A DNA stretch of 64,000 nucleotides, from positions 18,814 to 82,813 of the forward strand of contig DASSHE010000015.1 in assembly GCA_035693065.1 (NCBI GenBank), written 5' to 3'. This DNA is from Solirubrobacterales bacterium (lineage in GTDB: Bacteria; Actinomycetota; Thermoleophilia; Solirubrobacterales; 70-9). The first letter of the stretch is position 1. Each line of letters opens with the position of its first letter. Both the position numbers and the translations under genes were made by a program. Below, piece after piece: positions 9,411-26,585 of the stretch. The notes below the pieces were generated by a model, which was not told the DNA's origin, made no database searches, and saw only the letters and a program-made list of their open reading frames with translations.

Positions 9411-9475
9411 GCGGAGGCGAAGTCCCTGCATAATGGGCTGTTCTACCAGTCGAAGTTCCCCGGAAGGAGAAGCGC

Positions 9476-10153
9476 ATGAAGGCACGCAGCTTGATCCCGG
9501 CGGTGGTCGCCGTTGGACTCTGCCTACTGTTGACGCCGGCCTTGGCTGCGGCCGGAGCCATCAAGGGGAAGGTGACGGCGGAGGGCAGCTCGAAGCCGAT
9601 CAGCCGGGTCGTCGTCTGCGCGACGCCGTTCGGCGGCTCCAGCTCCTGCGCGAGCACCGGGAGCCGCGGCCGCTACGCGATCTCCGGCCTCGCGGCCGGG
9701 ACCTACAAGGTCGGGTTCGACGCGATCGCGGGCGGTCTCAATTACGTCACCGAGTACTACGACAACAAACCGACCTTCGAACTCGCCCAGAAAGTCACCG
9801 TCAAGCGCAACCAGACCACCAGCGGCATCGACGCCGCGCTCGCCGTCGGCGGCCAGATCACCGGCACCGTCACCGACGAAGCGACCGCCGCGCCGCTGCA
9901 GGGCATCAGGGTCTGCGGGTTCGTGATCGGCACCGACCTCGAATCCTGCGCCCGGACCGACGGCAGTGGCGCTTACGACGTGATCGGCCTGCCGAGCGGC
10001 GATTCCTACAAAGTCGAATTCTCCGCCGCGGGTTCCGGACTCGAATACGCGACCGAGTACTACGAAAACGCGGAATCGGCCCTAGAAGGCACTTCCGTCG
10101 CGGTCACGGCGGGGGCGGTGACCGCGGGAATCAACGCCGCGCTGGCGCCCTAA
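9476..10153 (+). CDS. secreted carboxypeptidase-regulatory-like (CarboxypepD_reg) repeat protein
   Basis: Signal peptide is present. Two repeats follow the pattern G.V....(R)V(V)CA...G.Y.I.GL..G.YKV.F......Y.TEYY.N. Confidence 0.65.
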   Translation: MKARSLIPAVVAVGLCLLLTPALAAAGAIKGKVTAEGSSKPISRVVVCATPFGGSSSCASTGSRGRYAISGLAAGTYKVGFDAIAGGLNYVTEYYDNKPTFELAQKVTVKRNQTTSGIDAALAVGGQITGTVTDEATAAPLQGIRVCGFVIGTDLESCARTDGSGAYDVIGLPSGDSYKVEFSAAGSGLEYATEYYENAESALEGTSVAVTAGAVTAGINAALAP

Positions 10154-10628
10154 GGGGCGGTTTGGCCAGGTCGCCCTCCAGACCCAACGCACGATAATGG
10201 TGGTTATGTGAACTCGTGGGGGATTCTGGGAGCGTCTCGGGCATGCACACCTCGATACAGCGCCATTGACCGTTCGGCCAAGTTATTCCGCCCCATTGAA
10301 GCAGGCCCGCCTCTTGCAGGTCGTCGAGGCAGCGCCGGACGCTCTTGGCGAAGCTGCTGAAGTCGCGCGCTTTGTCGCCAGTCACCGGGTACCCCAAGCC
10401 GGCGGCGGCCTGGGTCAGCGTGGCCCGAAAACGAGTGCCTTCGGCGAACGCCTTCCGGACACACCATCGGTACGCGCGGTCCCTGCTCTCCAAGCAGTCT
10501 CGCCGGAGCGTCCGGGGCTTGATCGCCTGTAGGGCCTCCGCGACTTCCTCCAGGCTCTGCGGTCGCCAATCGGCGCCGGTAGGGCTCTTACTATTAGTTA
10601 GCCGCTCGGGGGCTGATGCACCAGCCAT
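10131..10628 (-). CDS. hypothetical element-end protein (possible winged-helix-like DNA-binding protein); ORF reads through the attL repeat into host flank
   Basis: ATG at 10628. The last ~28 codons (..SSHNHHYRALG..) are encoded by the boundary repeat and host flank. No enzymatic motif recognised. Confidence 0.45.
   Translation of the reverse strand: MAGASAPERLTNSKSPTGADWRPQSLEEVAEALQAIKPRTLRRDCLESRDRAYRWCVRKAFAEGTRFRATLTQAAAGLGYPVTGDKARDFSSFAKSVRRCLDDLQEAGLLQWGGITWPNGQWRCIEVCMPETLPESPTSSHNHHYRALGLEGDLAKPPLRAPARR
10187..10214. repeat. left boundary repeat, dif-like (attL candidate): ACGCACGATAA-TGGTGG-TTATGTGAACT
   Basis: Shares the 12-nt core TGGTGGTTATGT plus GATAA and AACT with the copy at 26557-26585. 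The ATAA-N6-TTAT inner palindrome and TTATGTnAAcT arm resemble dif XerD-side arms. Confidence 0.6.
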
Positions 10629-10693
10629 CGGGCGGCATCTTTGTGTGACCGGCGGACGGAATCGCGCCAGGGGCGTTTAGGATCGCCCGCAGT

Positions 10694-11068
10694 ATGTGGA
10701 GGCTCTTCCAATTCGGGGTAGTCGCGGTGCTCGCGGGGGCATTAGGCGTAGCCGCGGGTTTTCACCTCCAAGACTCGCAAGGGTCCTCCGGGGCCACCAC
10801 CCGTGTCCTGAGCGGGAATAACGTTGCCCAGTACATCGACGATCGCCTGGGCCTCTCCTCTTTCTCGTCCCAGGACGGCGCGATCTGCCCCGAGCACATT
10901 CCCGCGATCAAGGGCAGGGTCGTCCACTGTCAGGTCGCTTACGAAGGCCACCAGGTGGGCGCCGAAGTGAAGGTCGTCAGCAAACTTGGCCTTGTGCGCC
11001 TTGTTGGCCTCTACGGGTGGACCGGGCCCGGGTGTTGGGAATACCTCCCGTGTTATGGCCGTCCCTGA
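10694..11068 (+). CDS. membrane-anchored DUF4333-like protein
   Basis: N-terminal TM is FGVVAVLAGALGVAAGF, followed by a Cys-containing beta domain (ICPEHIPAIKGRVVHCQV...EVKVV) resembling DUF4333. Confidence 0.5.
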   Translation: MWRLFQFGVVAVLAGALGVAAGFHLQDSQGSSGATTRVLSGNNVAQYIDDRLGLSSFSSQDGAICPEHIPAIKGRVVHCQVAYEGHQVGAEVKVVSKLGLVRLVGLYGWTGPGCWEYLPCYGRP

Positions 11069-11445
11069 AACCGCGCCGCCAGCTGCACCAACACCGGCTC
11101 CCGGCCGGCGCGTAGCTCGTCGATCGCCGCCATAGCGATCGCCTTCGCGAGCTCCTGGTCCGCGGTGTTCCACTGCTCGACCCGCTGCACCCCGCCGGGC
11201 ACCGGCTCGAACGCCTCCAGGCCGCGGCCGCGGAATTCGGCCCGGACCTCGAACGTCGCCCGCGGCGCTTCGCCGCCGCCGGTCAGCGGCCGCCCCACCG
11301 TCGTCGCCCCCTCCAGCGGCACGATCTCAACCTTCCACTGCGGGTCGCCCCCCGTGATCGAGAAGATCGCCTTGCCGCGGGTGACGCTGCCGCTGTAGCC
11401 GATCCGCGGGGTTGCCGCTGGATCAGCCCTTGGAATTGAGCCCAC
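11053..11445 (-). CDS. hypothetical protein (130 aa), last gene of the leftward operon
   Basis: GTG start overlaps the preceding small ORF. Composition looks coding. No motif recognised. Confidence 0.5.
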   Translation of the reverse strand: MGSIPRADPAATPRIGYSGSVTRGKAIFSITGGDPQWKVEIVPLEGATTVGRPLTGGGEAPRATFEVRAEFRGRGLEAFEPVPGGVQRVEQWNTADQELAKAIAMAAIDELRAGREPVLVQLAARFQGRP

Positions 11446-11602
11446 GTCGTCTCCCTCCCCAGGCGTCGAGGACGCCCCGGTTGTAGTCGTTCACCCGGCG
11501 ATAGGCCGCTTCGCGTCCCCGCCAGTAAGCGAGCAGCGGGATCACCATCAGCCACAGGAGCACCCGCAGGACCATCGATTTTTCGGCCGCCCCCGGGTTC
11601 AT
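11423..11602 (-). CDS. small membrane protein (59 aa, below the ORF-track cutoff)
   Basis: My own translation: MNPGAAEKSMVLRVLLWLMVIPLLAYWRGREAAYRRVNDYNRGVLDAWGG.... The ATG overlaps the upstream stop (ATGA at 11599-11602). One TM helix. Confidence 0.45.
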   Translation of the reverse strand: MNPGAAEKSMVLRVLLWLMVIPLLAYWRGREAAYRRVNDYNRGVLDAWGGRRRGLNSKG

Positions 11603-11844
11603 CGCTTCGCCGCTTCCTTCTCCTGTTCGCCGAGCTGCTGCAGCAGGTTCACCTCGGCGGCCGCCGCCGAGTAACCGATGTAGTGCAGCTCCTGGTAGCT
11701 ATTCCCCATGTACCAGCCGGGGCCTTGCCGGACGTGCCGCGGCGGTACGTGGTAGTAGGTGACGATCTCCGGCGGCTCCGCCAGCTGCTGGGCGAGGATG
11801 CGCAGCCGGGTGCCCCGTTCGCCTAGCCCCGGCACCGACCCCAC
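11599..11844 (-). CDS. hypothetical protein (81 aa) downstream of the ATPase
   Basis: Coding-like composition. Stop is coupled to the next ORF. Confidence 0.55.
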   Translation of the reverse strand: MGSVPGLGERGTRLRILAQQLAEPPEIVTYYHVPPRHVRQGPGWYMGNSYQELHYIGYSAAAAEVNLLQQLGEQEKEAAKR

Positions 11845-11879
11845 GTCCCTTTCCTGACTGGTGCTCCCACTGCCGACCT

Positions 11880-12560
11880 CTAGGCTGGCGTCTTTCGCTC
11901 AACGATGTTCTTCCGGCGCAGGTGCTCGGGAAGCGGCTTGCAGATGATCGGCTCCGAGTAGCCCTTGCGAAACCAGATGAAGGAGTGGGGTCCGTGCTCG
12001 GCCTGGGCCTGCTGCAGCATCTCCTGCAGCTGGCCCTTGGAGACCCCGATCCCGATCCTGGCGATCGCCAGGAGCTCGTCGTCGCCCTGCGGGGGCACGA
12101 CGACAAAGACGTGCTGGACCTCGGTCTTGCCGCGCACCGGCATTTCCACCGGCCGCTGGGATCCGCCCATGAACCCACACCCCCAGGCCCCGCCCTTGGA
12201 GATGTAGGCGGAGATGTTCGGCGGGGTCCGCTGCGCGCTGAAGTTGCACAGGTCCCCCATCTCGTGGGCGCAGATTGAGATCGGCCGTTTGCGTTCCCGC
12301 GCGATCGCGAAGACCGGCTCCATCTCCATCGGGTCGTCGGTCTGCGTGACGAGGTGGATGATCGGCGCGGTCCAGTCGATCGCCTCCACCGAATGCACGG
12401 GCTCGACCCCGGGGATCCCCCACTCCCCACCCTTGGTGTCGAGCAGGATGCGCTGACACCGAAGGGTGGAGAACAGGTGGTTCAACAGCTCGGACTTACC
12501 CGAGCGCGTTTCGCCCAGCACCAGCACCCGCTGGTGGTAGAGGATGCCGCCGCCGCTCAC
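11880..12560 (-). CDS. FtsK/HerA-superfamily P-loop ATPase (candidate genome-packaging ATPase, PRD1 P9 / A32-like)
   Basis: Size is 226 aa. Walker A is VLVLGETRSGKS and a Walker B-like motif is PISICAHEMGD. The GFMGGSQRPVEMP motif parallels LVLATQRPS in the host FtsK in this same window. Confidence 0.75.
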   Translation of the reverse strand: MSGGGILYHQRVLVLGETRSGKSELLNHLFSTLRCQRILLDTKGGEWGIPGVEPVHSVEAIDWTAPIIHLVTQTDDPMEMEPVFAIARERKRPISICAHEMGDLCNFSAQRTPPNISAYISKGGAWGCGFMGGSQRPVEMPVRGKTEVQHVFVVVPPQGDDELLAIARIGIGVSKGQLQEMLQQAQAEHGPHSFIWFRKGYSEPIICKPLPEHLRRKNIVERKTPA

Positions 12561-12688
12561 TCGGCACCCTCCACCTGGGACTCCCTAATCCGGGGTGCGG
12601 TCCCGGGCTGCCGACTGGCCGGCAATTTGCGGAGGGTGTTGATCCGGCTGAGCGGCCATCCCATTCTGGCAGGGTGCGTCGGCGACAT

Positions 12689-13033
12689 TCAGCCCTCCTG
12701 CTTCGGCGCCCGGCTCTCCGGGTCGATGGTCTCGGGTTCCAGGGCGATGAAGCTCTTCCCCGGGTCTTCCTCGAGCGCGGTCTTACCCGCGTCGAGGACG
12801 TCGCCGTCGAGCTCGAAGTGGAGCTCGTCGCGCTCGCGCTCGACCTCGGCCAGGTGCTCCAGTACCGCCTCCACCCTCTGGCCTTGGCGATCGCGGATCC
12901 GCTCGGCCCGCTCCTCGGCCCGGCGGATCCTCTTCGCCGCGCGGCGTTCGCCGGCGAGGATCAGGATCCCCGCGACCGCGACCGCCAGGTAGGCCAGGGT
13001 GAACTCGCCGGGTGCCTCTCCCCCGGGCTTCAC
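12689..13033 (-). CDS. membrane-anchored coiled-coil protein (114 aa)
   Basis: GTG at 13033 overlaps the upstream stop (GTGA). TM is FTLAYLAVAVAGILILAG, followed by a charged helical region RRAEERAERIRDRQGQRVEAVLEHLAEVERERDEL. Confidence 0.5.
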   Translation of the reverse strand: MKPGGEAPGEFTLAYLAVAVAGILILAGERRAAKRIRRAEERAERIRDRQGQRVEAVLEHLAEVERERDELHFELDGDVLDAGKTALEEDPGKSFIALEPETIDPESRAPKQEG

Positions 13034-13317
13034 GCGACGCCCTCGACCTTGTACTCGTGGAGGATTTCGAGCTCGGCAAGGGCGCCCGAAAGGCAGTCGG
13101 TGATGGCTGGGTCGTCGGTGTCGCTGTAGAGGCTCAGCAGCCACCTGACGATCCCGAGCAGCTGCGCGTCGAGCTCCTCCGGCGTGTCGGGGATCAGCGC
13201 CGAGAGCATCGGCTTGGCCATCCCGAGCATCTGCAGCATCCGCGCCGTCTGCTCGTCCTCCGGCTGCACTCCCTCGGCGCCCGCGAGCGCCTGGTCCAGC
13301 TTCTCCAGTGAGTTCAT
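13030..13317 (-). CDS. acidic hypothetical protein (95 aa)
   Basis: Internal ATG (MNSLEKLDQ...) at 13317 follows an AAGGAC ribosome-binding site. The listed longer N-terminus is Arg/Pro-rich and overlaps the upstream gene. Confidence 0.55.
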   Translation of the reverse strand: MNSLEKLDQALAGAEGVQPEDEQTARMLQMLGMAKPMLSALIPDTPEELDAQLLGIVRWLLSLYSDTDDPAITDCLSGALAELEILHEYKVEGVA

Positions 13318-13330
13318 CGTGTCCTTTCGC

Positions 13331-13945
13331 TTAGCTGATCTGCCACTCGACGCCGCCCGGTTCCCCGTGGGGTCCGGGCTCCGGCGGTCCTGCGCCGGGC
13401 GGGGCCTTGACCCCGGTGATCGGCACCTCTTCCTCGGCTTGCGCTCGAAGCACTTCGGCCCGTTCCCGGGTGCTGCGCACCCCGTAGGCCCCAAGCCCCA
13501 GGGCGAGGGCTACCGGGTCGCCCATCGCCGCGGCCGCGGCCGTCGCCGGGTAGCGGTTCAAGATCCGCGTCAGCGGACCGCCGATCGCTTTGAGGTCAGC
13601 CTGCGTGTGCAGCCAGTCCTGGTCGGCGACGCCGATCGCGCCGTGGAGCAGCTGCCCCTGCACGTCCAGCAGGTCCTGCACGGTGCCCTCCTCCCAGGCG
13701 ATCTCGGGCGTAGGCAAAGCATGAATGTCAGCTTGAGGCTGAGGCTCGGGGCCTGGCGGCGCCTGCTCGGCGTCGAAGGCAGGCCCGGGCTCGGCGATGA
13801 ACGGGCTACCCAGCGGCGAGGGCGTCGCGGACGCCGTCCCAGAAGCCGCCACCGGCTCCTCCCCGGCGTTGATCGCCGCCGCCTCGCGCGGGCTCGGGGT
13901 TCCCGCCTCCGTCGTCGGCTGGTCCGGTTGGCTCGGGTCGTTCAT
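13331..13945 (-). CDS. hypothetical protein with Pro/Ala/Glu-rich N-terminus (204 aa)
   Basis: ATG (MNDPSQ...) at 13945 is preceded by GAGGAAG. The C-terminal half looks globular (VQDLLDVQGQLLHGAIGVADQDWLH...). Confidence 0.55.
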   Translation of the reverse strand: MNDPSQPDQPTTEAGTPSPREAAAINAGEEPVAASGTASATPSPLGSPFIAEPGPAFDAEQAPPGPEPQPQADIHALPTPEIAWEEGTVQDLLDVQGQLLHGAIGVADQDWLHTQADLKAIGGPLTRILNRYPATAAAAAMGDPVALALGLGAYGVRSTRERAEVLRAQAEEEVPITGVKAPPGAGPPEPGPHGEPGGVEWQIS

Positions 13946-14183
13946 CGGCTTCCTCTCGCGTCGGGGTCGGGGCGGGCGGCTCAGGCGCATCGCCGTAATC
14001 GAGAACGGTGGGTCCCTGCCCGGGCACATGCCCTGGCTCGGCCCCGCTGTGCCCGGGCACGTGCCCGGGCTCGGGGGCGGCTTTGCCAGGGCTCAGCAGT
14101 TGCTCGGCCTGCTTGCGGCGCCCGGCTGCCAGGGCTTCAAGCTGGCGCTGGCGCTTCTCGGGGTCGTTGCTGAGCCCTGGCAT
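13806..14183 (-). CDS. hypothetical first ORF of the leftward operon (125 aa), overlapping the next gene in another frame
   Basis: MPGLSNDPEKRQRQLEALAAGRRKQAEQLL... contains an EPGHVPG duplication. Its last ~140 nt overlap CDS 13331..13945, so the true extent is uncertain. Confidence 0.35.
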   Translation of the reverse strand: MPGLSNDPEKRQRQLEALAAGRRKQAEQLLSPGKAAPEPGHVPGHSGAEPGHVPGQGPTVLDYGDAPEPPAPTPTREEADERPEPTGPADDGGGNPEPARGGGDQRRGGAGGGFWDGVRDALAAG

Positions 14184-14438
14184 TGCCGGGGCATCCTGCT
14201 GTGCCCGGGTGGTCCTGGGAACCCGGGGAGACCCCTACCCACCCCTCCCCTGGTCCGGGGCCTCCCCCCGCCTCCCCATCTTCCGATACGGCCGCGCCGC
14301 CCCCAGGCTTGCCCTCTCCTCCCGGGGCGCCGCGAACCGCGACACAGCGAAAGCAGGCGCCCCGGGCACCCAACTTCCCCCCGTCGGCTCGGAAAGGACC
14401 ACGTTTTGAAGCTCGCAGGCGTCACCGCCACCCAGTTC

Positions 14439-14540
14439 ATGAAGACGGGGCTGATCGCCCTCCTCTTCATCCTCCTGTTCAAGTTCGTGGCGGCGAAGTC
14501 GAACATCGCCGGCCTGCAGAGCGTGGCGGGGGCGGTCTGA
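14439..14540 (+). CDS. small membrane protein (33 aa) immediately upstream of the capsid-protein candidate
   Basis: MKTGLIALLFILLFKFVAAKSNIAGLQSVAGAV. The stop overlaps the next ATG (TGATG at 14538-14542). Confidence 0.45.
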   Translation: MKTGLIALLFILLFKFVAAKSNIAGLQSVAGAV

Positions 14541-15823
14541 TGCGCGCCGAGCTCCTCGACAACCCCGTCAAGCGGATGCCCCAGAGCTTCCGCTTCACCG
14601 GCGAGCTCCGTGAGGCGTTCCGCGCCCGCGGCATCGACCTGGCCGACAGCGAGGCCGTCGCCGGCCTGATCGATCGCGGCCTCGGCCCGATCTCCGGCGG
14701 CGCGACCGGCATGGACGGCGCCGCCTTCATGCACAACCTCCCGCCCGAGGGCACCTTCGAAATGAACTCCGATCTGTTCTTCGCGCAGACGGAGCGAAAC
14801 GACGTGCCCCAGGGTCAGGTGGCCTTCCCCGGCCTCGGCGGTGCGCCATTCGACGTGCGGCTCTCCAACGTCGGCGTCCTGGCGAGCATCAAGATCATCT
14901 TCGAAGGCTCGCTCGTCGTCGCCGGCGGCGGCACCTGCACGGCCACCTACCAGTGGCCGTGGAACACGATGAAGCGCTTCTCGCTGTCGGCCAACGGGCA
15001 GACCTCCCTGCTCTCGGCCGAGGGCATGGACCTGCGGGCGCGCAACCAGCGGATCTACCGCAACCCGCGCGACCCCATGACCACGGCCACCCAGACCGAC
15101 GGCGTCTTCGGCGACCCCCAGGCCGGGGTGATCGCCAACGGCACCTACCCGATCCAGCTGATCTACGAGGTGCCGATCATCCACGACTGGTACACCCTGA
15201 CCGGCGCCCTGTTCGCACAGTCCGACCAGATCTACCTGGGCTGGCGCTTCACGCCGGCGGCGACCGCCGAACTGTTCACCCTCACCGGCGGCTCGACGGC
15301 GACGCTGACCGGGACGGTCAAGAGCACGACCACGTTCTTCGACGTCCCCTACGCCGACGTCCAGGGCGGGCGCAAAGTGCTGATCCCCGACCTGCAGTGG
15401 CTGCACGGGTTCGTCGGCTCGGATCTGCCTTTCGCCAACACCGGCGACGTCAAAGCGCCGTTCATCCGCACCAGCGGCGAGCTCCTGGCCTACTACTCCT
15501 ACCTCGACAACGGCGGCGCCGCGGTGATCGACCCCACGGCGCTCTCCGAGATCCGCTTCGAGTACGGAGGCAACCGCAAGCCGAGGGTCCACAACCCGCC
15601 GACCACGCTCCTCGACAAGAACGTCAAGGACTACAACGGCCGCATCCTGCCCAAAGCCGGCTACTCGGTCTTCGACTTCGAGTCCGACAACCCGAGCCGC
15701 GACCTGGTCTTCCCGAAGGGGGTGACGGAGCTGCAGACGGTGTTCGGGATCCCCGCGGGGACGACGATCAACGCCAACGCTCACGTCCACTTCGTGGAGG
15801 AGGCCCTGTTCGCAGGGCGCTGA
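14540..15823 (+). CDS. candidate double jelly-roll major capsid protein (PRD1 P3-like), 427 aa
   Basis: Internal ATG of listed ORF 14183..15823. No TM segments and beta-rich. Motifs FDVRLSNVGV, YEVPIIHDWYTLTGALFAQ, YSYLDNGGAAV and LPKAGYSVFDFESDNP run collinear (offset of roughly 40-50 residues) with PRD1 P3 FDVTPANVGI, YWVPLAYSETDLTGAVLAN, FDNGGS and FPKGVYYCDNRDKP, as recalled from memory. Confidence 0.65.
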   Translation: MRAELLDNPVKRMPQSFRFTGELREAFRARGIDLADSEAVAGLIDRGLGPISGGATGMDGAAFMHNLPPEGTFEMNSDLFFAQTERNDVPQGQVAFPGLGGAPFDVRLSNVGVLASIKIIFEGSLVVAGGGTCTATYQWPWNTMKRFSLSANGQTSLLSAEGMDLRARNQRIYRNPRDPMTTATQTDGVFGDPQAGVIANGTYPIQLIYEVPIIHDWYTLTGALFAQSDQIYLGWRFTPAATAELFTLTGGSTATLTGTVKSTTTFFDVPYADVQGGRKVLIPDLQWLHGFVGSDLPFANTGDVKAPFIRTSGELLAYYSYLDNGGAAVIDPTALSEIRFEYGGNRKPRVHNPPTTLLDKNVKDYNGRILPKAGYSVFDFESDNPSRDLVFPKGVTELQTVFGIPAGTTINANAHVHFVEEALFAGR

Positions 15824-15824
15824 G

Positions 15825-16232
15825 ATGGCGACCGGCAGAGCAACGGGTCGCGGCGGCGGCGTCCTCTCAGAGGCCGACGTCCGCGGCGGCGGCGAAATGG
15901 AGTGGGGCAACCTGATCGGCATCCACCCCGACCACCCGCTGGTAGCGGGCTCGGGGCCGGGCTCCTACTCGGGGGCGATCGTCAACGAGAACAGCCGGAT
16001 CGTCACCACCCCGGCCGGGCTGGCCGGGCCGGCGGGCGGCGTGATCGCGACGCCCGAAGGGGTCAGCCTGCGTCACCTCGACGACTGGCGCGACGTCTTC
16101 AACTTCAAAGGAAGCCCGGCGCCCTGGCTGCTGCTGGTGATCCTCGGCGTCGTCTTCTTCGCCCACGCCTCGGTGCGGGCTCGAGCCGGCGCCTTCGGCA
16201 AGAGCGCGAGCGCCCGCGCGGCCTTCGGCTAG
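15825..16232 (+). CDS. virion-module protein with C-terminal TM anchor (135 aa)
   Basis: Starts 2 nt after the capsid-candidate stop. C-terminal TM is PWLLLVILGVVFFAHA. Confidence 0.6.
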   Translation: MATGRATGRGGGVLSEADVRGGGEMEWGNLIGIHPDHPLVAGSGPGSYSGAIVNENSRIVTTPAGLAGPAGGVIATPEGVSLRHLDDWRDVFNFKGSPAPWLLLVILGVVFFAHASVRARAGAFGKSASARAAFG

Positions 16233-16240
16233 GGGGTCGC

Positions 16241-16366
16241 GTGGAAGCGCTCGCCCAGCTGCTGATCGGGATCGGGTTCATCGCGATCTTCATCAACTAC
16301 ATGAAGAACGGCCCCGAGGGCGTCAAGACCTGGTGGCGCGCGAAGTTCAAGGGGCAGACGGCCTGA
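16241..16366 (+). CDS. small membrane protein (41 aa)
   Basis: GTG follows AGGGGG. VEALAQLLIGIGFIAIFINYMKNGPEGVKTWWRAKFKGQTA. The stop overlaps the next ATG. Confidence 0.5.
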   Translation: MEALAQLLIGIGFIAIFINYMKNGPEGVKTWWRAKFKGQTA

Positions 16367-16473
16367 TGGCGGTCGGGATACTCCTCGCGCTGGTCGGCTT
16401 CTGGGTCGTCATGCGCACGGTCAACCGCGACTCCAGCGGCAGGACGCTGGTGAATCGGATTCTGCCCGCATGA
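16366..16473 (+). CDS. small membrane protein (35 aa)
   Basis: MAVGILLALVGFWVVMRTVNRDSSGRTLVNRILPA. Overlapping stop/start codons on both sides (TGATG upstream at 16364-16368, ATGA downstream at 16470-16473). Confidence 0.5.
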   Translation: MAVGILLALVGFWVVMRTVNRDSSGRTLVNRILPA

Positions 16474-17258
16474 CCGTCGTCGACCAGGCGGAGAACGTGG
16501 GCGGCGTCGTCTCGGCCGCGCGCCTGCGCGAGAGCTTCATGCGCCGCCGGGCGAACGCCTCCAACGAGGAGGAGCGCGAGGCCCTGGGCGACGCGATCGG
16601 CACGATCGAGGTCCGCTTCCCCGAGCTCGAGGACCTGCCCGCCGGCGGCGCCGAGCGCTTCGCCCGCGAGCGCGGCCACGGCAAAGGCGCCCGCAGCCCC
16701 AGCCACGAGGGCCGACAGCGCCACCGCCCGCCGGTCAAGCAGAAGCCGAAAGCGAAAGCCAAACCGCGGCCCAAGGCCGGGGGCGGTAAGACCGCGAGCT
16801 CGACGAAGCGCAGCCAGAGCTCCCGCACCAGTGCCCGCCGCTCCACGCGGGTCGAAGACCGGATCCGCAGCCGCGGCCGCCGCGCCTACACCGAAACCGG
16901 GATCCCCGCCGCCGGCGCCTCGGTCTCGCGGATCGCGATGAGCGCCCTCGGCGCCACCGTCGGCCTCGCGGCGGTCTACCTGCTGCTGACCTCGGCCGAG
17001 CGCCACGCCGGCAAGGAACCACCGCTGCTCGGTCTCCTGGTCGCCGTGACCGGCTTCCTGCGGCGGATCGTCGCGCCCGTTGACTTCTTCGGCCCCCAGA
17101 TGACGCAGCTGAACTACGCCAAGGCGATCGCCAACCCGACCGAAGCGGCCGCGATCGCCGTCAAGCACCCCACCAAGCTCCAGCCGCTTGGGGTGAAGCC
17201 GGCCGAGATCGGCATCTCCCCCACCCCCCGCCCCCGCGTCACTCACAAGAGGAGGTGA
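16470..17258 (+). CDS. membrane protein with Lys/Arg-rich central region (262 aa)
   Basis: Basic tract is KQKPKAKAKPRPKAGGGK. Two TM helices: IAMSALGATVGLAAVYLLL and LLGLLVAVTGFL. Confidence 0.65.
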   Translation: MTVVDQAENVGGVVSAARLRESFMRRRANASNEEEREALGDAIGTIEVRFPELEDLPAGGAERFARERGHGKGARSPSHEGRQRHRPPVKQKPKAKAKPRPKAGGGKTASSTKRSQSSRTSARRSTRVEDRIRSRGRRAYTETGIPAAGASVSRIAMSALGATVGLAAVYLLLTSAERHAGKEPPLLGLLVAVTGFLRRIVAPVDFFGPQMTQLNYAKAIANPTEAAAIAVKHPTKLQPLGVKPAEIGISPTPRPRVTHKRR

Positions 17259-17262
17259 CACC

Positions 17263-17414
17263 TTGAAGACCATCACCAAAGAGCTCGTCGGCATGACCGT
17301 GCTGCTCGTCCTGGCCTACCTGGTGCTCGTTCACTTCACGGGCTTTTCCCGTGATGTCGGAGCGCTCGGCTCGGCCTGGGTCAACGTCACGAAGACTTTC
17401 CAGGGCCGCGGGTA
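17263..17414 (+). CDS. small membrane protein (50 aa)
   Basis: TTG start follows AGGAGG. LKTITKELVGMTVLLVLAYLVLVHFTGFSRDVG.... Confidence 0.5.
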
Positions 17415-17421
17415 GGAATCG

Positions 17422-17823
17422 ATGCCCCCGCTCCAGCACCGCCATCCCTCGCGCGGCAGCCTCGCCCGCCGGCCGGCCTCTGCCCGGCAGGCCCAGGCGA
17501 TGCTGCCGCCGCCCCCTCCGGGGCCGAACCTCGGCGCCTTCGCCCAGCTCGGCGAGCTCCCGCAGGACGTCGTCGGGGCGGTCGTCGGGCAGCTGCGCAC
17601 CTCGCTGCTAGACGGGGCGACGGCGCTGCGCCTCGCCGGCCGCGGCCGCCAGCGCTACTTCGGCACCGAGATGCCGAGCCCGCAGCGGTTCACCGCACCC
17701 GCCAACGCCAACGACGAGGACTCGATCCGCGCCGGCGTCCGCTTCGCCGGCAACGCGCGGCGCACGGAGGGCAAGAACGCGAGCCGCGGCCTGCGCAGGG
17801 TCTCCCCGGGAGTGATGATCTAG
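17422..17823 (+). CDS. hypothetical virion-module protein (133 aa)
   Basis: ATG ORF abutting the next gene (stop 17821-17823, next ATG at 17824). No TM and no recognised motif. Confidence 0.5.
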   Translation: MPPLQHRHPSRGSLARRPASARQAQAMLPPPPPGPNLGAFAQLGELPQDVVGAVVGQLRTSLLDGATALRLAGRGRQRYFGTEMPSPQRFTAPANANDEDSIRAGVRFAGNARRTEGKNASRGLRRVSPGVMI

Positions 17824-18462
17824 ATGGCTGAGGCACCCGCCACCGGCAAGGGCCCGCTGAAGAAGCTGACGCCCAAACAGAAGCGCTACGCGATGGTCCT
17901 CGGCGCCGCCGCGGTCCTCGCGCTGATCTACCTGCTGCAGCGCCGCTCGGCGGCCCCCGCAGAAGGACAGAGCCCCAGCACCGCCGAAAGCGCCGGCGCC
18001 GGCTCCCCTTCCTACCCGGTCAGCGGTGGCGGCGGGACCGACCCCAGCGCCTTCATCGGCGCCCAGAGCGAACAGATCGGCAGCGCCCTGGGCGAAGTCA
18101 GCAGCGGGCTCGGTGAAGTCAGCGGCGGCCTCGGCGAAGTGATCGGCAGCAACGACCGGCTCGGCGTCCAGGTGGAAACCAACCTCGACGAAATCGGCGA
18201 AGCCCAGGCCCGGACGCTCGCGGCGCTCGGCAAGCAGGGCAAGAACATCACCGCTATCCGCAAAAAGCTCGCGAAGCCGCCGCGGCCGGTCAAAGGCAAG
18301 CCGGGGTCCGGCAAGCCCCATTCCAAGGCGCAGCCTCCCAAGCCGACGAAGGGCAAGCCGGGCTCCGGCAAGCCCCATTCAAAGCCTCAGCCTCCCAAGC
18401 CACAGCCGAGACCCAACCCCAGACCGCCGGCGCCAAAGGCGCCCAAGAAGAAAGGCAAGTAG
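17824..18462 (+). CDS. membrane-anchored repeat protein (212 aa)
   Basis: N-terminal TM is AMVLGAAAVLALIYLL. GEVS mini-repeats are followed by two 19-aa repeats KGKPGSGKPHSK(A/P)QPPKP and a Pro/Lys-rich tail. Confidence 0.65.
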   Translation: MAEAPATGKGPLKKLTPKQKRYAMVLGAAAVLALIYLLQRRSAAPAEGQSPSTAESAGAGSPSYPVSGGGGTDPSAFIGAQSEQIGSALGEVSSGLGEVSGGLGEVIGSNDRLGVQVETNLDEIGEAQARTLAALGKQGKNITAIRKKLAKPPRPVKGKPGSGKPHSKAQPPKPTKGKPGSGKPHSKPQPPKPQPRPNPRPPAPKAPKKKGK

Positions 18463-18963
18463 ATGAGTGAGGAAGCACAGATTTTCAACCAGGCGACCCA
18501 GCCGGCCGCCCCCGCACAGCAGACGGTGACGGCGACGCCGCCGGTGCAGCCGCCGGTCCAGATGCCGGCCGAGATCACTCCGCAGGCACCATCCGCGGCC
18601 GCCGAGGAAATGCCCGAGGAGTGGCCGGTCAAGGGCTACGCGGGTCCCCAGCCCTGGGAGGTCTCGCGGCCGCCGGCGCTCGCGCATGACCGCCGTCTCC
18701 TGATCTCCGGCTCCGCCGGCGACGAGGTCTTGGAGCTCTGCGCCTGCCTCGGCCGGCTCGGCTACGAAACCTCGGTCTCCCGCGGCGAGAACGCCCTCGC
18801 GGTATTCGGCGCCGCCGAGCGCACCGCGGTCGAGCGCTTCCGCGCCGACTACGGCGTGCAGGAGGACCCGGCGATCATCAGCGCCACGACCCCCGACGCC
18901 GTCGGGCCGTGGACCTGGGAGGCGCTTTTCCGCCTCGTCAACCGGGTCGAAGGAGGCGAGTAG
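18463..18963 (+). CDS. protein with C-terminal peptidoglycan-binding-like domain
   Basis: GDEVLELCACLGRLGY...FGAAERTAVERFRADYGVQEDPAI...VGPWTWEAL follows the PG_binding_1 pattern (G..V..LQ..L..LGY...FG..T..AV..FQ...G...DG.VG..T...L). Confidence 0.55.
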   Translation: MSEEAQIFNQATQPAAPAQQTVTATPPVQPPVQMPAEITPQAPSAAAEEMPEEWPVKGYAGPQPWEVSRPPALAHDRRLLISGSAGDEVLELCACLGRLGYETSVSRGENALAVFGAAERTAVERFRADYGVQEDPAIISATTPDAVGPWTWEALFRLVNRVEGGE

Positions 18964-18967
18964 GCGG

Positions 18968-19240
18968 ATGGACCGGCTGCCCGGGCCTCAGTTCAGCCCC
19001 CACGACCTCGCGCCGTGGTGGGCTGAGCCGAGCATGGACACCGACCGGCCGGTAGCGGTCGGTCGGGCCATGCCCGCATCGCACTTCCCCCTGCCCGGGT
19101 GGCCGGCCGCCTCGACCGTCGACTACCTGACCAAACTGATCCTGCTGGGGCTGCTGCTGCTGGCGCTGCCCTACCTGATCGGCAAGGCCCTGACCAGCCC
19201 CGGCACGGTGCTGGCGGTCGCTGGACGGGCGGCCAAGTGA
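18968..19240 (+). CDS. small membrane protein (90 aa)
   Basis: TM is LILLGLLLLALPYLI. The stop overlaps the next GTG (GTGA). Confidence 0.55.
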   Translation: MDRLPGPQFSPHDLAPWWAEPSMDTDRPVAVGRAMPASHFPLPGWPAASTVDYLTKLILLGLLLLALPYLIGKALTSPGTVLAVAGRAAK

Positions 19241-19809
19241 GCGTCCTCAGCGACGTCCAAATCGCCTGGTACATGCTCCGCGCGGGCTTCCCCGCGGACC
19301 CGCGGGTCCTGGCCGAAGGGATCGGCGTTGTGCGCGCCGAGAGCGGCGGCAACCCCAAGTCAGAGGTCCCCGGCAACGAACACATCGGGATGTGGGCTGA
19401 GTCCTCGGCCTTCGGGACCCGCGGCGAGCGCCTGGACCCGCTCGCCGCGACCAAAGCCGCCTACAAGCAGTGGCTCGCCGACGGCAAGAGCTTCTGGTCG
19501 GCCTGGGGCCGCTGGGAGTCCGAACAGGCCGGCCGCGACGGCGCGACCACCTGGCACGCCCACCTGGGAGCGGCGCGGCAGGCGCTCGCCGGATTCGGCT
19601 CCGCGCCGGGCTCGGGCGCCAGCACTCCCAAGAGCGCCTTCCGGCGGCCGGCGGCCGGCGAAGAAGGCAGCGGCGGACCCTCGGGATTCCTCGTCTTCCT
19701 GGTGAACGGCGTCCTGATCCTCGGTGGCGTCGCCCTGATGGCGTTCGGCGGTATGCGCGCGGTCGGCGCCGGCGGCGGTAAGACCGGGCTCGAGGGAGCG
19801 GCCGCGTGA
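19237..19809 (+). CDS. lytic-transglycosylase-like protein with C-terminal TM anchor
   Basis: GTG at 19237. GIGVVRAESGGNPKSEV...GMWAES resembles the lysozyme-like/SLT catalytic Glu-Ser region. C-terminal TM is FLVFLVNGVLILGGVALMAF. The architecture parallels PRD1 P7. Confidence 0.6.
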   Translation: MSVLSDVQIAWYMLRAGFPADPRVLAEGIGVVRAESGGNPKSEVPGNEHIGMWAESSAFGTRGERLDPLAATKAAYKQWLADGKSFWSAWGRWESEQAGRDGATTWHAHLGAARQALAGFGSAPGSGASTPKSAFRRPAAGEEGSGGPSGFLVFLVNGVLILGGVALMAFGGMRAVGAGGGKTGLEGAAA

Positions 19810-20558
19810 CTAGCTACGTCTACCCATTCGCATCCGGTGCTACTACGGGGCGCATTGATCAGGGTCAGGACTTCGGCGGCACTGGTCCGATCTACGCGAT
19901 CGGTAACGCGAGGATCACCAGCCTCGGTGCCCCGGGTTGGCCAGGCGGTCGCGGCATCCTCTACCAGCTGCTCGATGGCTCGCGTCGGGGTCAGTACGTC
20001 TTCGTCTACGAGGGGGTGCGCCCAAGCGTGCGGGTTGGACAGGTGGTGGGGGCCGGCCAGAGGATCGGATCGCTGATCCCGGGTAGCTCCACCGGAATCG
20101 AGATTGGCTTTGCCGACGCCAACGGCGTTCCCCTCTCCCACAGCGAATACACCGAGGGCAAGGAAACCGTCCGCGGTAAGGAAATGGCGCGATTTCTGGC
20201 TCACCTGAAGGCTGGTGGCGGAAAGACCGACTATGGCGGTGGTCCGATCGGATTCGCCAAGCAGTTCGTATTCGGTGATCCCCTCGAAGCCCTAGGGATC
20301 GGGTCGGGTCAGGGCCTCAAGCAGGACATCCTTGGGGTGGGGGGCCAAGCTGCGTCCACGGTCGGCGCCCAGGTGGTCGAATACATCGGAGGTCTCCTCG
20401 GCGAGAAGGCCGCGCCGATCCTCCTGACCATCGCCCTGGTCGTCGGCGGGGCCTTCCTCATCTACTTCGGCCTGGCCCGGGCAGTGGGGGTAGCGCAGCC
20501 CGTCGCCACCCCGCTCCGCGCCGTCCGCGCGGGCGCAATCGCGGGAGCCGCGGCATGA
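19806..20558 (+). CDS. M23/LytM-like beta-domain protein with C-terminal TM segments
   Basis: GRIDQGQDFGG..PIYAIGNARI...VRVGQVVGAGQRIGSL...GIEIGFA follows the M23 fold pattern. I could not see the canonical HxxxD/HxH zinc ligands. TM is ILLTIALVVGGAFLIYF. Confidence 0.55.
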   Translation: MTSYVYPFASGATTGRIDQGQDFGGTGPIYAIGNARITSLGAPGWPGGRGILYQLLDGSRRGQYVFVYEGVRPSVRVGQVVGAGQRIGSLIPGSSTGIEIGFADANGVPLSHSEYTEGKETVRGKEMARFLAHLKAGGGKTDYGGGPIGFAKQFVFGDPLEALGIGSGQGLKQDILGVGGQAASTVGAQVVEYIGGLLGEKAAPILLTIALVVGGAFLIYFGLARAVGVAQPVATPLRAVRAGAIAGAAA

Positions 20559-20977
20559 ACGATCGCCTGCCCCAACACCCCGACGACCCGACCGCAGCCA
20601 AGCTCGCCCGCATCGAGCAGCTGCTCGCCGACATGCGAGCCGAGCAGTGCCGCGGCAACGCGCCAGCGCAGCTGCACGCGATCACCTTCGAAGGCGCCGC
20701 CAAGAAGTACATCCGCCGCAGCGAGCACCCGCCCGCGGCGCTGTCGATCGGGATCGTCAACCCCGTCGAACTGAGCATCTACGTCGGCCTCTCCGGCGAG
20801 CGGGCCGCGCCGAACAGCCGCGCCTTCGTCGTGCCGCCGAAGTCGGCGATGGTCGTCCCGGTCGCCGTGGACAAGTTCGAGCTCGGCGTGGATCCCACCG
20901 TCCTGGGCGAAGAATCGGCGACGATCTTCCTGCTGCGCTTCGACACGGTGCAGCCGTTCTTCCTGGGGTCGATGTGA
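20555..20977 (+). CDS. small beta-rich protein (140 aa), penton/vertex candidate
   Basis: N-terminal helix followed by ~100 aa of alternating hydrophobic strands (ALSIGIVNPVELSIYVGL...MVVPVAVDKFELGV...IFLLRF). Size fits single jelly-roll penton proteins. Weak inference. Confidence 0.4.
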   Translation: MNDRLPQHPDDPTAAKLARIEQLLADMRAEQCRGNAPAQLHAITFEGAAKKYIRRSEHPPAALSIGIVNPVELSIYVGLSGERAAPNSRAFVVPPKSAMVVPVAVDKFELGVDPTVLGEESATIFLLRFDTVQPFFLGSM

Positions 20978-21672
20978 GCGATCTCGCGAGCTGGAGCTCG
21001 GCGCCGGCGGCTCCCACCCTCGCCACGATCTTCGTCGGCGACGGCAGCACCAACAACGTCAAACAGTTCGTCGAAGAACAGGCGCCGGCCGAACGGATCA
21101 AAGTCGTTGAGGAAGTCGTCGGCAAAGGCGCCCTGGTGCTGCAGTTCGAAGTGCGCGAAGGCGACCCCGAAATCGCCGCCGGCCACCGCTCCGAGCTCGT
21201 CTCCGGAAAGACCTTCCGCCACGGCGACCACCTCTTCTTCGGCTTCGGCGTCAAGCGCGAAGAAGGCGACAACACCCCGGGGCACTGGCAGATGTTCTTC
21301 CAGTTGCACGACCAGAGCGGGGGCTCGCCGCCGCTGTGCCTGCAGTACTTCAAATCCGGCGGCAAGGTCTGGGCGTGGCTCGGCTCGGGCGACGGCACCA
21401 AGGAATACTGGGAAGGCGAAGTCGGCGAAGAAGGCAAAGCCTGGGTCGACCTGCTGATCCGCCTCAAGGTTGGCACCACCGACGGTGAAATCGAAGTGTG
21501 GCGGGACAAGGTCCTGCAGAAGCTGATCGGCGGGGGCACGGTCAAGCGCGGCCAGAACACCGAGGGCGTCGCGCCGCTCTACGACAAGATCGGCATCTAC
21601 CGCACCGGCGCCTCGGTCGGCACCACCAAAACCCGGATGCGTAACTACTTCATCGCCAGGGTGCTGCCGTGA
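20974..21672 (+). CDS. polysaccharide-lyase-like / ConA-like jelly-roll protein (spike or receptor-binding/depolymerase candidate)
   Basis: GTG at 20974 (GTGA overlap). HRSELVSGKTF..GDHLFFGF...WQMFFQLHD...PPLCLQY...WVDLLIRLKVGTTDGEIEVWRD...LYDKIGIYR matches the Polysacc_lyase (PF14099-type) pattern. Confidence 0.55.
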   Translation: MSDLASWSSAPAAPTLATIFVGDGSTNNVKQFVEEQAPAERIKVVEEVVGKGALVLQFEVREGDPEIAAGHRSELVSGKTFRHGDHLFFGFGVKREEGDNTPGHWQMFFQLHDQSGGSPPLCLQYFKSGGKVWAWLGSGDGTKEYWEGEVGEEGKAWVDLLIRLKVGTTDGEIEVWRDKVLQKLIGGGTVKRGQNTEGVAPLYDKIGIYRTGASVGTTKTRMRNYFIARVLP

Positions 21673-21992
21673 GCGCCGCCATGAACAACGTCCAGGCGCC
21701 GGACACCTACACCACCGCGGCGACCCTCACCTGCCCCGGCACCGCCCGGGTGCGGCTGCAGATCAACAACCAGGCGATCTACTGGCAGCGCGGCTACAGC
21801 TCCCCCGGCGGCGGCGGGATCGAATGGCAGCCCGAAGAGATGCTGCTGCCGATCACCGCGAGCCTCGACGAGCGCTGCGACGCGATCCGCATCCGCGCCG
21901 CGGTGCCGTTGGCCAAACTCCCGGCCGGCTCCGAACAGGCCCGGGTGACTATCGGCACCCGTACCGCCGCCGAGATCGGCGAAGCGGCATGA
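21669..21992 (+). CDS. small beta-rich hypothetical protein (107 aa)
   Basis: GTGA-coupled start and ATGA-coupled stop. No recognised motif. Confidence 0.5.
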   Translation: MSAAMNNVQAPDTYTTAATLTCPGTARVRLQINNQAIYWQRGYSSPGGGGIEWQPEEMLLPITASLDERCDAIRIRAAVPLAKLPAGSEQARVTIGTRTAAEIGEAA

Positions 21993-22872: not shown

Positions 22873-22877
22873 GTCAA

Positions 22878-22970: not shown

Positions 22971-23025
22971 CCCCGTACTCGAGTCGAGTCTTACCGCCGT
23001 CGACCACGGCGCCGAAAGGAAGCAA

Positions 23026-23984: not shown

Positions 23985-23988
23985 GCCG

Positions 23989-24254: not shown

Positions 24255-24293
24255 GCGGCCTTCGAGCGGTGCCCGCTGGTGATCCGTCGCGGG

Positions 24294-24415
24294 CTTCTGG
24301 CCAGAAGTAAGACGCCGACGTCGGCGGGGCGCCCTCGGCCGAAAGCACCCCGCCGACGTCGGCGGTCTTACCTGGATCCGGGTCTTACCGCGCCGACGTC
24401 GACGCGGTAAGACCC
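24294..24415. promoter_or_regulatory. cluster of nested palindromes carrying four GTAAGAC half-sites (operator/iteron/bidirectional-terminator candidate)
   Basis: CTTCTGGCCAGAAG lies at 24294-24307. GTAAGACgCCGACGTCGGCGGGG (24307-24329) pairs with CCCCGCCGACGTCGGCgGTCTTAC (24348-24371). A 36-nt near-perfect palindrome GGGTCTTACCGCG...CGCGGTAAGACCC lies at 24380-24415. Confidence 0.6.
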
Positions 24416-24428
24416 GGAGATCCCCCAC

Positions 24429-24635
24429 CTACTTCTTCTTCGGCACCTTGGCGTCGCGGATTGCCTGGCGCAACACTTCGCTGCGCTTTCGCGGCGTGCC
24501 GCGGTAGTGGTAGTGGTAACCCATTGGCACCCCGTATTCGGCTTCGGCGAGTTCGTCGAGCTTCGCCAGGTCCTCGTCGCTGAGCTTGACCGAGATCGTC
24601 GTGCGCCGGCCGTTCCAGGTCTCCTGCGGCATCAC
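24429..24635 (-). CDS. ribbon-helix-helix (CopG/Arc/MetJ-type) DNA-binding protein
   Basis: 68 aa. RRTTISVKLSDEDLAKLDELAEAE...RSEVLRQAIRDA fits a beta-strand plus two helices. Flanked on both sides by GTAAGAC palindromes. Confidence 0.6.
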   Translation of the reverse strand: MMPQETWNGRRTTISVKLSDEDLAKLDELAEAEYGVPMGYHYHYRGTPRKRSEVLRQAIRDAKVPKKK

Positions 24636-25000
24636 CGACCTCCAGCTGCAGACTGGTAAGACCCGTCGCGATCGCGACGGGTCTTACTCGCCGCCGGCGG
24701 GCGGTAAGACCCGCCTCGACGAGCAGGGCACGGCACCACCCGCGGCGGCGAGCCCAGGACGTGGAGGACGACGTAGCAGCGGTGCCGCGACCACAGGGTC
24801 CCGGCCTGCGTGCTCGGCGCCCGGACGCCGACGATGAGCACCACGGCGAGGACGATCGCCGCGGCGCGGCGCTCCAGCTGCTTGCGCGCCTTCGTGGCTT
24901 GCACAATTTCGGCGCGACGGCCCTGCCCTCGCTCCCGTTGCTTCTTGTGGAAGTACTGCACGAGGAAGGGCCTCGGGTATCCCTGCGGTGCATCAGCCAT
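24632..25000 (-). CDS. hypothetical small membrane protein (122 aa as ORF; C-terminal third doubtful)
   Basis: ATG at 25000 (MADAPQGYP...) with TM AAAIVLAVVLIVGV. The distal part is Arg-rich and is encoded by the palindrome region, so the real product may be shorter or the region non-coding. Confidence 0.4.
   Translation of the reverse strand: MADAPQGYPRPFLVQYFHKKQRERGQGRRAEIVQATKARKQLERRAAAIVLAVVLIVGVRAPSTQAGTLWSRHRCYVVLHVLGSPPRVVPCPARRGGSYRPPAASKTRRDRDGSYQSAAGGR
24656..24712. promoter_or_regulatory. perfect 32-nt palindrome GTAAGACCCGTCGCGATCGCGACGGGTCTTAC plus one more GGTAAGACC copy, just upstream of the RHH gene
   Basis: Palindrome at 24656-24687 and extra half-site at 24704-24710. Located 21 nt upstream of the RHH start codon. 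Confidence 0.6.
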
Positions 25001-26556: not shown

Positions 26557-26585
26557 CGCGCAGATAACTGGTGGTTATGTCAACT
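26557..26585. repeat. right boundary repeat, degenerate dif-like (attR candidate): GCGCAGATAAC-TGGTGG-TTATGTCAACT
   Basis: Direct repeat of 10187-10214 with one extra C after ATAA and a G-to-C change in the right arm. It lies 4 nt from the stop of host gene 26590..27300. Confidence 0.6.

Follow-up and report, generated by a model that had tools for sequence, protein, structure and literature searches.

A PRD1-type double jelly-roll capsid protein encoded by a provirus between dif-like sites in a Solirubrobacterales chromosome

A 64,000-nucleotide (nt) stretch of contig DASSHE010000015.1 (hereafter the window), which belongs to a metagenome-assembled genome (MAG) of Solirubrobacterales, carries a provirus of 16.4 kb at approximately 10187-26585 in the bacterial chromosome, and the product of the provirus gene at 14540-15823 is a double jelly-roll (DJR) major capsid protein, an identification that is secure. 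The best explanation of the gene and its surroundings, to which a probability of about 85% is assigned, is a temperate phage of the DJR lineage (Tectiliviricetes in the wide sense), tailless and with an internal membrane, for which the gene supplies the major capsid protein. The DJR identity was first proposed in a sequence-only reading of the window, and three approaches now agree on it, namely the comparison of a 127-sequence family profile with sequences in the PDB, alignment by hhalign, and structural matching of a predicted model by Foldseek. Furthermore, the whole element is probably a temperate, circular, polymerase-less DJR phage that uses the dif/Xer system of its host, as its gene content, its flanking repeats, and its relatives suggest.

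Capsid gene, predicted fold, and family-level homology

The plus-strand frame 14540-15823 is an uninterrupted translation of 427 amino acids (aa) in a window of approximately 70% G+C, and third-position G+C favours this reading frame. The ATG at 14540 shares one base with the stop codon of an upstream open reading frame (ORF) for a 44-aa membrane protein. A longer frame with a TTG start at 14183 is also present in the mechanically compiled ORF list, and 14540 is taken as the conserved start of the capsid gene because the same coupled pair of 44-aa ORF and capsid gene is called in every related locus examined. As the sequence-only reading described it, the gene is the largest ORF of the plus-strand late operon, in which the next largest encodes 262 aa, and its product is beta-rich and free of transmembrane segments: the predicted model is mostly β, and the sole hydrophobic window (residues 111-129) forms a β strand in the model and not a transmembrane helix.

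The AlphaFold2 model of the capsid protein, computed from a 54-sequence alignment, has a mean pLDDT of 85 and a pTM of 0.79. Briefly, residues 1-72 are poorly defined save for two short helices, the remainder comprises the two tandem β sandwiches that had been anticipated, and two helices, at residues 162-172 and 355-365, occupy equivalent places in the two halves, as in the known DJR layout, where each jelly roll has an α helix between its late strands. In the Foldseek comparison with the PDB, the best 29 matches are all P3, the capsid protein of phages PRD1 and PR772 (E 1.8e-18 to 2e-16; TM score 0.68-0.75 on the target), with alignments of approximately 380 columns that cover both jelly rolls at 16-17% identity. 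These are followed by the STIV coat protein (4e-15) and then by the capsid proteins of PBCV-1, an iridovirus, and other giant viruses. In a library of viral models, capsid proteins again head the matches, those of the tectivirus GC1 (1.1e-19), the tectivirus Wip1 (7e-17, TM score 0.79), and STIV. The sequence-only reading was to be abandoned if no significant profile or structural match to DJR capsid proteins was found and if the predicted fold was of another kind; the profile hidden Markov model and Foldseek matches are both significant, and the predicted fold is a DJR. An N-terminal extension of approximately 70 residues (residues 1-72, window 14540-14760) is a trait of the capsid proteins of the window's own clade, and distant members of the family, of 360-400 aa, begin near profile position 70.

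The proposal had its origin in five strings attributed to PRD1 P3, all of which are exact in P3 (AY848689). Their order is identical in both proteins: FDVTPANVGI (P3 55, window protein 104, offset 49), YWVPLAYSETDLTGAVLAN (P3 166, window protein 209, offset 43), FDNGGSF (P3 291, window protein 321, offset 30), LSQR (P3 306, window protein 335, offset 29), and FPKGVYYCDNRDKP (P3 336, window protein 370, offset 34). The claimed offset of 40-50 residues holds for the first two motifs and fails for the other three. Motifs 1, 2, and 5 are in register in the alignment of the 127-sequence profile with P3 of the PDB, and FDNGGSF and LSQR are in register in the hhalign alignment of the 54 sequences with P3. 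The similarity of the lone window protein to P3 is marginal at the sequence level. The pairwise alignment that had been recommended gave a best BLASTP E value of 0.025, which is not significant, and a shuffle test in its favour, the local alignment score of 64 standing against 36.9 ± 5.3 in shuffled sequences (z 5.2; 0 of 500 reach 64). A single-sequence search of PDB sequences with the capsid protein returned noise only.

Significance for the homology to P3 was reached because the family alignment was broadened, the narrow alignment and the single sequence being insufficient. The broad profile was built from 127 sequences that span the diversity of the family, and the narrow one from 54. With the broad profile, only five PDB sequences were matched at E ≤1, all of them DJR capsid proteins, including PRD1/PR772 P3 at 4.8e-14 (profile positions 69-357 against P3 residues 38-344) and the STIV coat protein at 7e-11, and hhalign with the broadened alignment recovered P3 at 96% probability and E 3.5e-9. 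The narrow alignment gave weak hhalign matches (Toil 1e-3, WheeHeim 0.15, PRD1 3e-3). Pfam family PF09018, the N-terminal part of P3, is matched at E ≤0.001 by 26 of the 127 family members (best 1.6e-11), and three members carry a precomputed PF09018 annotation; PF25513 (P2_C, "Viral coat protein P2 C-terminal domain") is touched by just 4 of the 127.

At least 274 close relatives of the capsid protein are present in public assemblies, every one of them labelled "hypothetical protein" or left nameless. An exhaustive profile search of 1.84 billion representatives yielded 328 clusters (defined at 50% identity) at E ≤1e-3 and 109 at ≤1e-30, and the 14 capsid matches among 185,579 species genomes are all in Solirubrobacterales or in unclassified Actinomycetota MAGs. 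No match was obtained when the capsid protein and the putative packaging ATPase of the provirus were compared by tblastn with 50,697 phage records, and for the capsid family no relative was found in INPHARED by tblastn and none was confirmed in IMG/VR by a pattern scan derived from the capsid alignment.

Integration site, circular relatives, and gene content

The provirus is bounded by two direct repeats, attL and attR (Table 1), which were located by comparing junctions across related loci; attR lies 5 bases from the end of a DsbA-like gene. Within the 64-kb window, a 28-nt consensus occurs at ≤7 mismatches only at 10187 and 26558, on the plus strand in both cases. The layout of the site is of the Xer type, a spacer of 6 nt being flanked by one arm that ends in ATAA and one that ends in TTAT. 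Compared with the dif site of E. coli, GGTGCGCATAATGTATATTATGTTAAAT (PMC2731167), the motif agrees at 16 of 28 bases, mostly in the inner repeats and the TTATGTnAAnT arm, the reference here being the E. coli site. The right arm of attL, TTATGTGAACT, differs from the host right arm, TTATGTCAACT, which is retained in attR, and this combination is the pattern expected of a hybrid junction.

The host flanks shared by the window and the integrated relatives comprise thiolase, SDR, and methyltransferase genes on the left and DsbA-like and hydrolase genes on the right, and the insertion point is located between the convergent methyltransferase and DsbA-like genes. Related loci L005 and L006 are likewise bounded, but with the complete site on the right and a site with only the left arm on the left. 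It appears that a good right arm and a degenerate left arm come from the phage of the window and the reverse from those of L005 and L006, in line with right- and left-armed attP variants. A metagenome scan for CGCACGATAA-N6-TTATGT recovered at least 120 contigs with one site each, and the motif, with TTATGTCAAGT-type arms, is widespread in soil metagenomes. Approximately 24 of these contigs carry the thiolase, SDR, and methyltransferase genes, a single complete site, and the DsbA-like and hydrolase genes, with nothing inserted. Because of these empty arrangements between the same convergent genes, the site is a conserved feature of the host and the provirus is an insertion into it. The provirus length of 16.4 kb matches that of the 15.9-17.8-kb contigs on which many family members are found.

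No recombinase or integrase was recognised in the provirus, either by Pfam or PHROG scans of 35 of the approximately 38 ORFs or by tblastn of the integrase of relative L024 over the window. Since no integrase is encoded and the bounds are dif-like, the parsimonious reading is that integration is performed by host XerC/D at a dif-like site, which would make the provirus an integrative element exploiting Xer (IMEX).

Three other treatments of the provirus ends were set aside. The att pair, with just 12 exact bases, was missed by a generic repeat search over 7-28 kb; an att site linked to a tRNA was ruled out, no tRNA gene being present in the window; and the end segments 10237-10669 and 25115-26498 were rejected as host DNA because homologues of their genes occur in free circular relatives. 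Further one-armed dif-like sites are located near family proviruses (L019 3988 and 5964, L018 20144, L013 1626), and the two left-arm sites of L019, 2 kb apart, may reflect tandem insertions. The methyltransferase gene and attL are separated by a gene for a secreted protein with CarboxypepD_reg repeats (9476-10153; region 9424-10153), for which many of the empty arrangements leave no space between methyltransferase gene and site. The sequence CCCTGCATAATGGGCTGTTCTACCAGT, upstream of this gene, has a weak likeness to a decayed dif-like site, and the segment could be what is left of an earlier insertion there. The host gene for FtsK, including its gamma domain, is at 48107-51100 on the minus strand, approximately 22 kb from the dif-like site, and the rest of the neighbourhood has housekeeping functions (DinB-like polymerase, HflX, MiaB, RNase J, PNPase). 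In E. coli, the FtsK translocase activates XerD at dif.

A circular form is observed in a relative. The ends of L024 (17,322 nt, JGI 3300065508) overlap directly by 185 nt and are bridged by L025, which yields a circle of 17,137 bp, and no inverted termini are present in L024. The L024 capsid protein is 54-57% identical to that of the window by tblastn. At the equivalent place, L024 encodes a tyrosine integrase of 272 aa, and the N-terminal part of its 359-aa protein is homologous to the attL-proximal ORF of the window; L024 is the int-type counterpart of the dif-type element of the window. The att-side gene block is inverted relative to the structural core between the window type and the L005 type, the orientation of the core to the host flanks being unchanged (10131-10628 and 24993-26429 in the window against 4905-6230 and 19723-20120 in L005, with L012, L019, and L020 compared as well). 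L020 has, in addition, an inverted ATPase module, which follows the late operon.

The gene content of the provirus is summarised in Table 1. The 226-aa P-loop protein is a moderately supported candidate for the expected packaging ATPase, with modest statistics: the STIV B204 packaging NTPase is matched by a nine-orthologue profile along the entire profile length (E 8.4e-4), and HerA (4.5e-4) and FtsK are matched too, the Pfam matches being weak. For the other proteins of the minus-strand module, Pfam and PHROG scans gave no family match. Hydropathy predicts a membrane helix in 11 late-operon proteins, which is consistent with an internal lipid membrane, and one of the small late proteins, of 166 aa, has weak endolysin PHROG matches. 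Support for the two wall-degrading enzymes comes from relatives, the L005 counterpart of the 190-aa protein matching Pfam SLT_3 and the L024 counterparts SLT and Peptidase_M23, whereas the window proteins themselves have just weak M23 and endolysin matches. In the PDB, the 140-aa protein is matched best by the penton-base domain of spike protein P5 from PR772, a homologue of the penton P31 (E 1.2e-3, TM score 0.45-0.50), and its remaining PDB matches are cupins, close behind P5; the protein may be a penton. The 103-aa protein among the candidate host-recognition proteins is kept in nine related loci. At the end of the late operon, where relatives hold Amidase_2, GH25, or M15 endolysins, the window proteins gave no family match in Pfam and PHROG. 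The half-site CGGGTCTTACC occurs seven times in the window against 1.0 expected, five of the copies forming palindromes on both sides of the gene for the ribbon-helix-helix (RHH) regulator; these resemble an operator array and are candidates for a lysogeny or transcription switch. The 165-aa protein next to attL, whose last approximately 18 codons run over attL into host DNA, is suspected to have a winged-helix fold.

Pfam and PHROG scans of the provirus proteins were mostly empty. No DNA polymerase family was recognised among its ORFs, every one of ≥103 aa having been scanned, and the same scans recognised no replication protein, the rolling-circle type included; besides the capsid gene, no ORF exceeds 262 aa. 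A stretch of approximately 700 nt beside the att site is conserved between proviruses (window 25785-26429, minus strand, and L005 4905-5580) at 65% DNA and 51% protein identity, with coding-type third-position G+C and without a called gene in L005. A 19-nt repeat (16776-16794, 19768-19786, 20211-20229) encodes A/GGGGKT in the late membrane proteins of 262, 190, and 250 aa, and the gene for the late protein of 212 aa has tandem repeats of 21 nt (GLGEVSxG) as well as a duplication of 57 nt that encodes KGKPGSGKPHSK in a Lys/Pro-rich tail (18088-18154, 18271-18384).

Table 1. Features of the provirus and its integration site (window coordinates unless a related locus is named)
Feature	Position	Strand	Remarks and basis
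Major capsid protein	14540..15823	+	N-terminal extension 1-72 (low confidence), jelly roll 1 ~73-240, jelly roll 2 ~246-425; model, Foldseek, profiles
Membrane protein of 44 aa, in translational coupling with the capsid gene	14406..14540	+	Position as PRD1 P20, Toil gp13, WheeHeim gp17; conserved in related loci
Putative packaging ATPase, 226 aa, FtsK/HerA superfamily	11880..12560	-	Walker A GETRSGKS; profile matches
Minus-strand module, divergent from the late operon: 204, 95, 114 aa, ATPase, 81, 59, 130 aa	11053..13945	-	Block conserved in related loci
Small late proteins of 135, 41, 35, 262, 50, 133, 212, 166, 90 aa	15825..19240	+	Most with predicted membrane helix; candidate internal-membrane / DNA-delivery proteins; hydropathy
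Two wall-degrading enzymes with C-terminal membrane anchors: 190 aa (transglycosylase-like), 250 aa (M23-peptidase-like)	19237..20558	+	Pfam matches of relatives
Candidate penton (vertex) protein, 140 aa	20555..20977	+	N-terminal helix and eight beta strands; low-confidence model
Candidate vertex/host-recognition proteins: 232 aa (polysaccharide lyase domain), 103 aa, 233 aa	20974..22690	+	Pfam Polysacc_lyase 2.1e-18
End of late operon: 114 aa (two membrane helices, holin-like by position), 205 aa, 87 aa	23026..24228	+	Hydropathy, position
67-aa RHH regulator gene, 24429-24632 (-), with flanking palindromes	24363..24713		Faint Pfam RHH match, weak repressor PHROG match
Genes adjoining attR: 109, ~114, up to 214 aa	24993..26429	-	Homologous to plus-strand genes at the opposite provirus end in L005 and L006
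165-aa protein adjoining attL	10131..10628	-	Homologous to N-terminal part of 359-368-aa protein in L002 and L024
attL	10187..10214	+	ACGCACGATAA-TGGTGG-TTATGTGAACT; complete dif-like site
attR	26558..26585	+	GCGCAGATAAC-TGGTGG-TTATGTCAACT; degenerate left arm, host-type right arm
dif-like sites in relatives	L005 4805, 20133; L006 4878, 20419; L012 5987; L020 979

Proposed lifestyle of the element and alternative explanations

By analogy with PRD1 P3, trimers of the capsid protein, each subunit with two tandem eight-stranded jelly rolls, would form pseudo-hexagonal capsomers, and these would tile an icosahedral shell over a lipid vesicle. The many small membrane proteins whose genes follow the capsid gene would sit in the vesicle, genome packaging through a special vertex would be driven by the FtsK/HerA-type ATPase, and the fivefold vertices would be closed by the 140-aa protein. 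The free genome is expected to be circular, to integrate and excise through host XerC/D as an IMEX, and to be replicated passively with the host chromosome in its integrated state.

Several observations weigh against this interpretation. The element is known from the sequence of a MAG alone, the capsid protein by itself matches none of the phage records significantly in pairwise comparison, and its score against PF09018 (18.9 bits, E 0.001) is under the curated cutoff of 25.3 bits. The assignment of the packaging ATPase is based on E values near 1e-3, and the model of the penton candidate, computed from a 6-sequence alignment, is of low confidence (pLDDT 65). Furthermore, some orphan protein of the provirus could be an unrecognised recombinase or replication protein. 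With regard to the site, GC skew across the window gives no usable terminus signal, xerC and xerD were not found in the window, no search having been made outside it, and the 28-nt site is a candidate for the true chromosomal dif.

Among the alternatives, the one that survives best, which is itself unlikely, is a decaying or domesticated provirus whose capsid gene is a relic or has been co-opted, so that no infectious virions are formed. It is favoured by the failure to recognise an integrase, polymerase, or replication gene in the provirus, by the occupation of the same host locus in several genomes (window, L005, L006, L012, L020), and by the length of the attL-side protein, 165 aa compared with 359-368 aa in free relatives. 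However, the core genes conserved in the free circular L024 and present in the window are all intact, both att sites are preserved, and the scanned relatives with an empty site, approximately 24 in number, indicate that the insertion is not fixed. The occupants of the locus also differ in gene order and share capsid identities of just 52-71%, which argues for repeated independent integrations. A temperate phage that may be active at present is preferred to a relic.

A second alternative, a true member of Tectiviridae whose linear genome has inverted terminal repeats, is replicated by protein priming, and happened to be assembled beside host DNA, is very improbable and already contradicted. It agrees with the tectivirus-like fold of the capsid protein and with the tectivirus-like order of the neighbouring genes, and of the traits of the family a DJR capsid protein and an FtsK/HerA ATPase are present; a polymerase, a linear genome with inverted termini, and a terminal protein were not found. 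No family B polymerase is encoded, no provirus ORF is larger than 427 aa, and the provirus is situated between direct dif-like repeats in a contiguous chromosome, an arrangement that is also seen in a 2.85-Mb contig. The relative L024 is circular, and no phage record was matched by the capsid protein or the ATPase in tblastn. The element is not a tectivirus in the strict sense. Least probable of all is a cellular DJR protein, for example a carbohydrate-active enzyme of the type proposed as the ancestor of the capsid proteins: cellular DJR homologues exist (PMC8812541) and a polysaccharide lyase is encoded nearby, but the PDB matches at E ≤1e-9, among the best 50 listed, are all viral capsid proteins, the profile matches only P3 and the STIV coat protein among PDB sequences, and the gene is embedded in a mobile 16.4-kb block together with packaging ATPase, membrane-protein, and lysis genes.

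Two traits of a dif-type IMEX are found in the temperate DJR phage proposed here: attL and attR are dif-like, one of them regenerates a full site, and no self-encoded integrase was recognised. Membership in Corticoviridae (PM2-like) is not indicated, since the capsid protein is P3-like and no replication protein was detected, circularity, as observed in L024, being the only shared trait.

The capsid protein and its element are a very divergent representative of an already known DJR type. It is somewhat favoured that they represent an undescribed, family-level lineage of phages of Solirubrobacterales (Thermoleophilia) with PRD1-type capsids, a circular genome of approximately 17 kb, no polymerase, and two interchangeable modes of lysogeny on one structural core, namely host XerC/D at dif or a tyrosine integrase of their own. 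Full-text literature searches returned no paper that links Solirubrobacterales or Thermoleophilia with DJR viruses, and the supplements of Yutin et al. (2018; PMC5894146) list no host from either group. Tailless, membrane-containing phages are rarely recognised in genome data, and a PRD1-type capsid is now placed in Solirubrobacterales, a common and almost uncultured soil lineage. If the proposed lineage is real, the phage collections searched hold no member of it, and, together with a PM2-like case in Vibrio, Xer hijacking would have arisen repeatedly in tailless membrane phages across distant phyla. The family profile could be used to annotate the 328 clusters now labelled just "hypothetical protein".

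Comparison with known DJR viruses

The closest structural reference is PRD1 P3 (Alphatectivirus; 1CJD, 1HX6, 1W8X), which has the same DJR fold (Foldseek 1.8e-18, TM score 0.72-0.75) and the five motifs in the same order. In PRD1, as in the window, a small membrane ORF lies directly upstream of the capsid gene and further small membrane ORFs lie downstream. The window protein differs from P3 in its low identity in structural alignment (16-17%) and in approximately 50 extra N-terminal residues. The ATPase gene of PRD1 is just upstream of the capsid gene, whereas that of the window is on the opposite strand, and, compared with PRD1, the element of the window is without terminal protein or polymerase, its genome is not linear, and its host is of a high-GC Gram-positive lineage.

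Toil (Epsilontectivirus) and WheeHeim and Forthebois (Deltatectivirus) share with the window a host in the phylum Actinomycetota and a similar genome size of 17-18 kb, and the neighbourhood of the capsid gene in Toil and WheeHeim resembles that of the window, with a small membrane ORF, the capsid gene, and small membrane ORFs. At the sequence level, the window capsid protein is no closer to Toil or WheeHeim (hhalign E 1e-3 and 0.15) than to PRD1, and neither phage was recovered by tblastn of the window capsid protein or ATPase. Yutin et al. established the existence of DJR proviruses in actinobacteria and the lack of a polymerase in most DJR genomes, some Toil-like proviruses of the "Toil group" included (PMC5894146). 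Toil-like prophages are mostly extrachromosomal and linear (PMC5894146), whereas the element of the window is integrated in the chromosome. STIV (Turriviridae) is linked to the window by its coat protein B345, which is matched by the capsid profile and by Foldseek, and by B204, which is matched by the ATPase profile; it differs in its archaeal host, its turret vertices, and a tyrosine integrase of its own.

With respect to lysogeny, the nearest parallel is the PM2-like, dif-type DJR prophage of Vibrio, which is also without an integrase, has a dif-like target, and uses a full-length or one-armed attP. Both the Vibrio case and the window family have a sister form that carries a tyrosine integrase on a shared structural core, and the free genome of the Vibrio phage is circular, as in L024. 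The proposed Xer mechanism has a precedent in this prophage, but in another host phylum and with another type of capsid, that of the window being P3-like and of 427 aa; between the terminal lysogeny genes of the two elements, no similarity was detected. All features of the element have precedents, but not in one system: its capsid module is like that of tectiviruses, and its circular genome and dif/Xer lysogeny are corticovirus- or inovirus-like. This combination is useful for tracing the exchange of morphogenetic and lysogeny modules in the DJR virus lineage.

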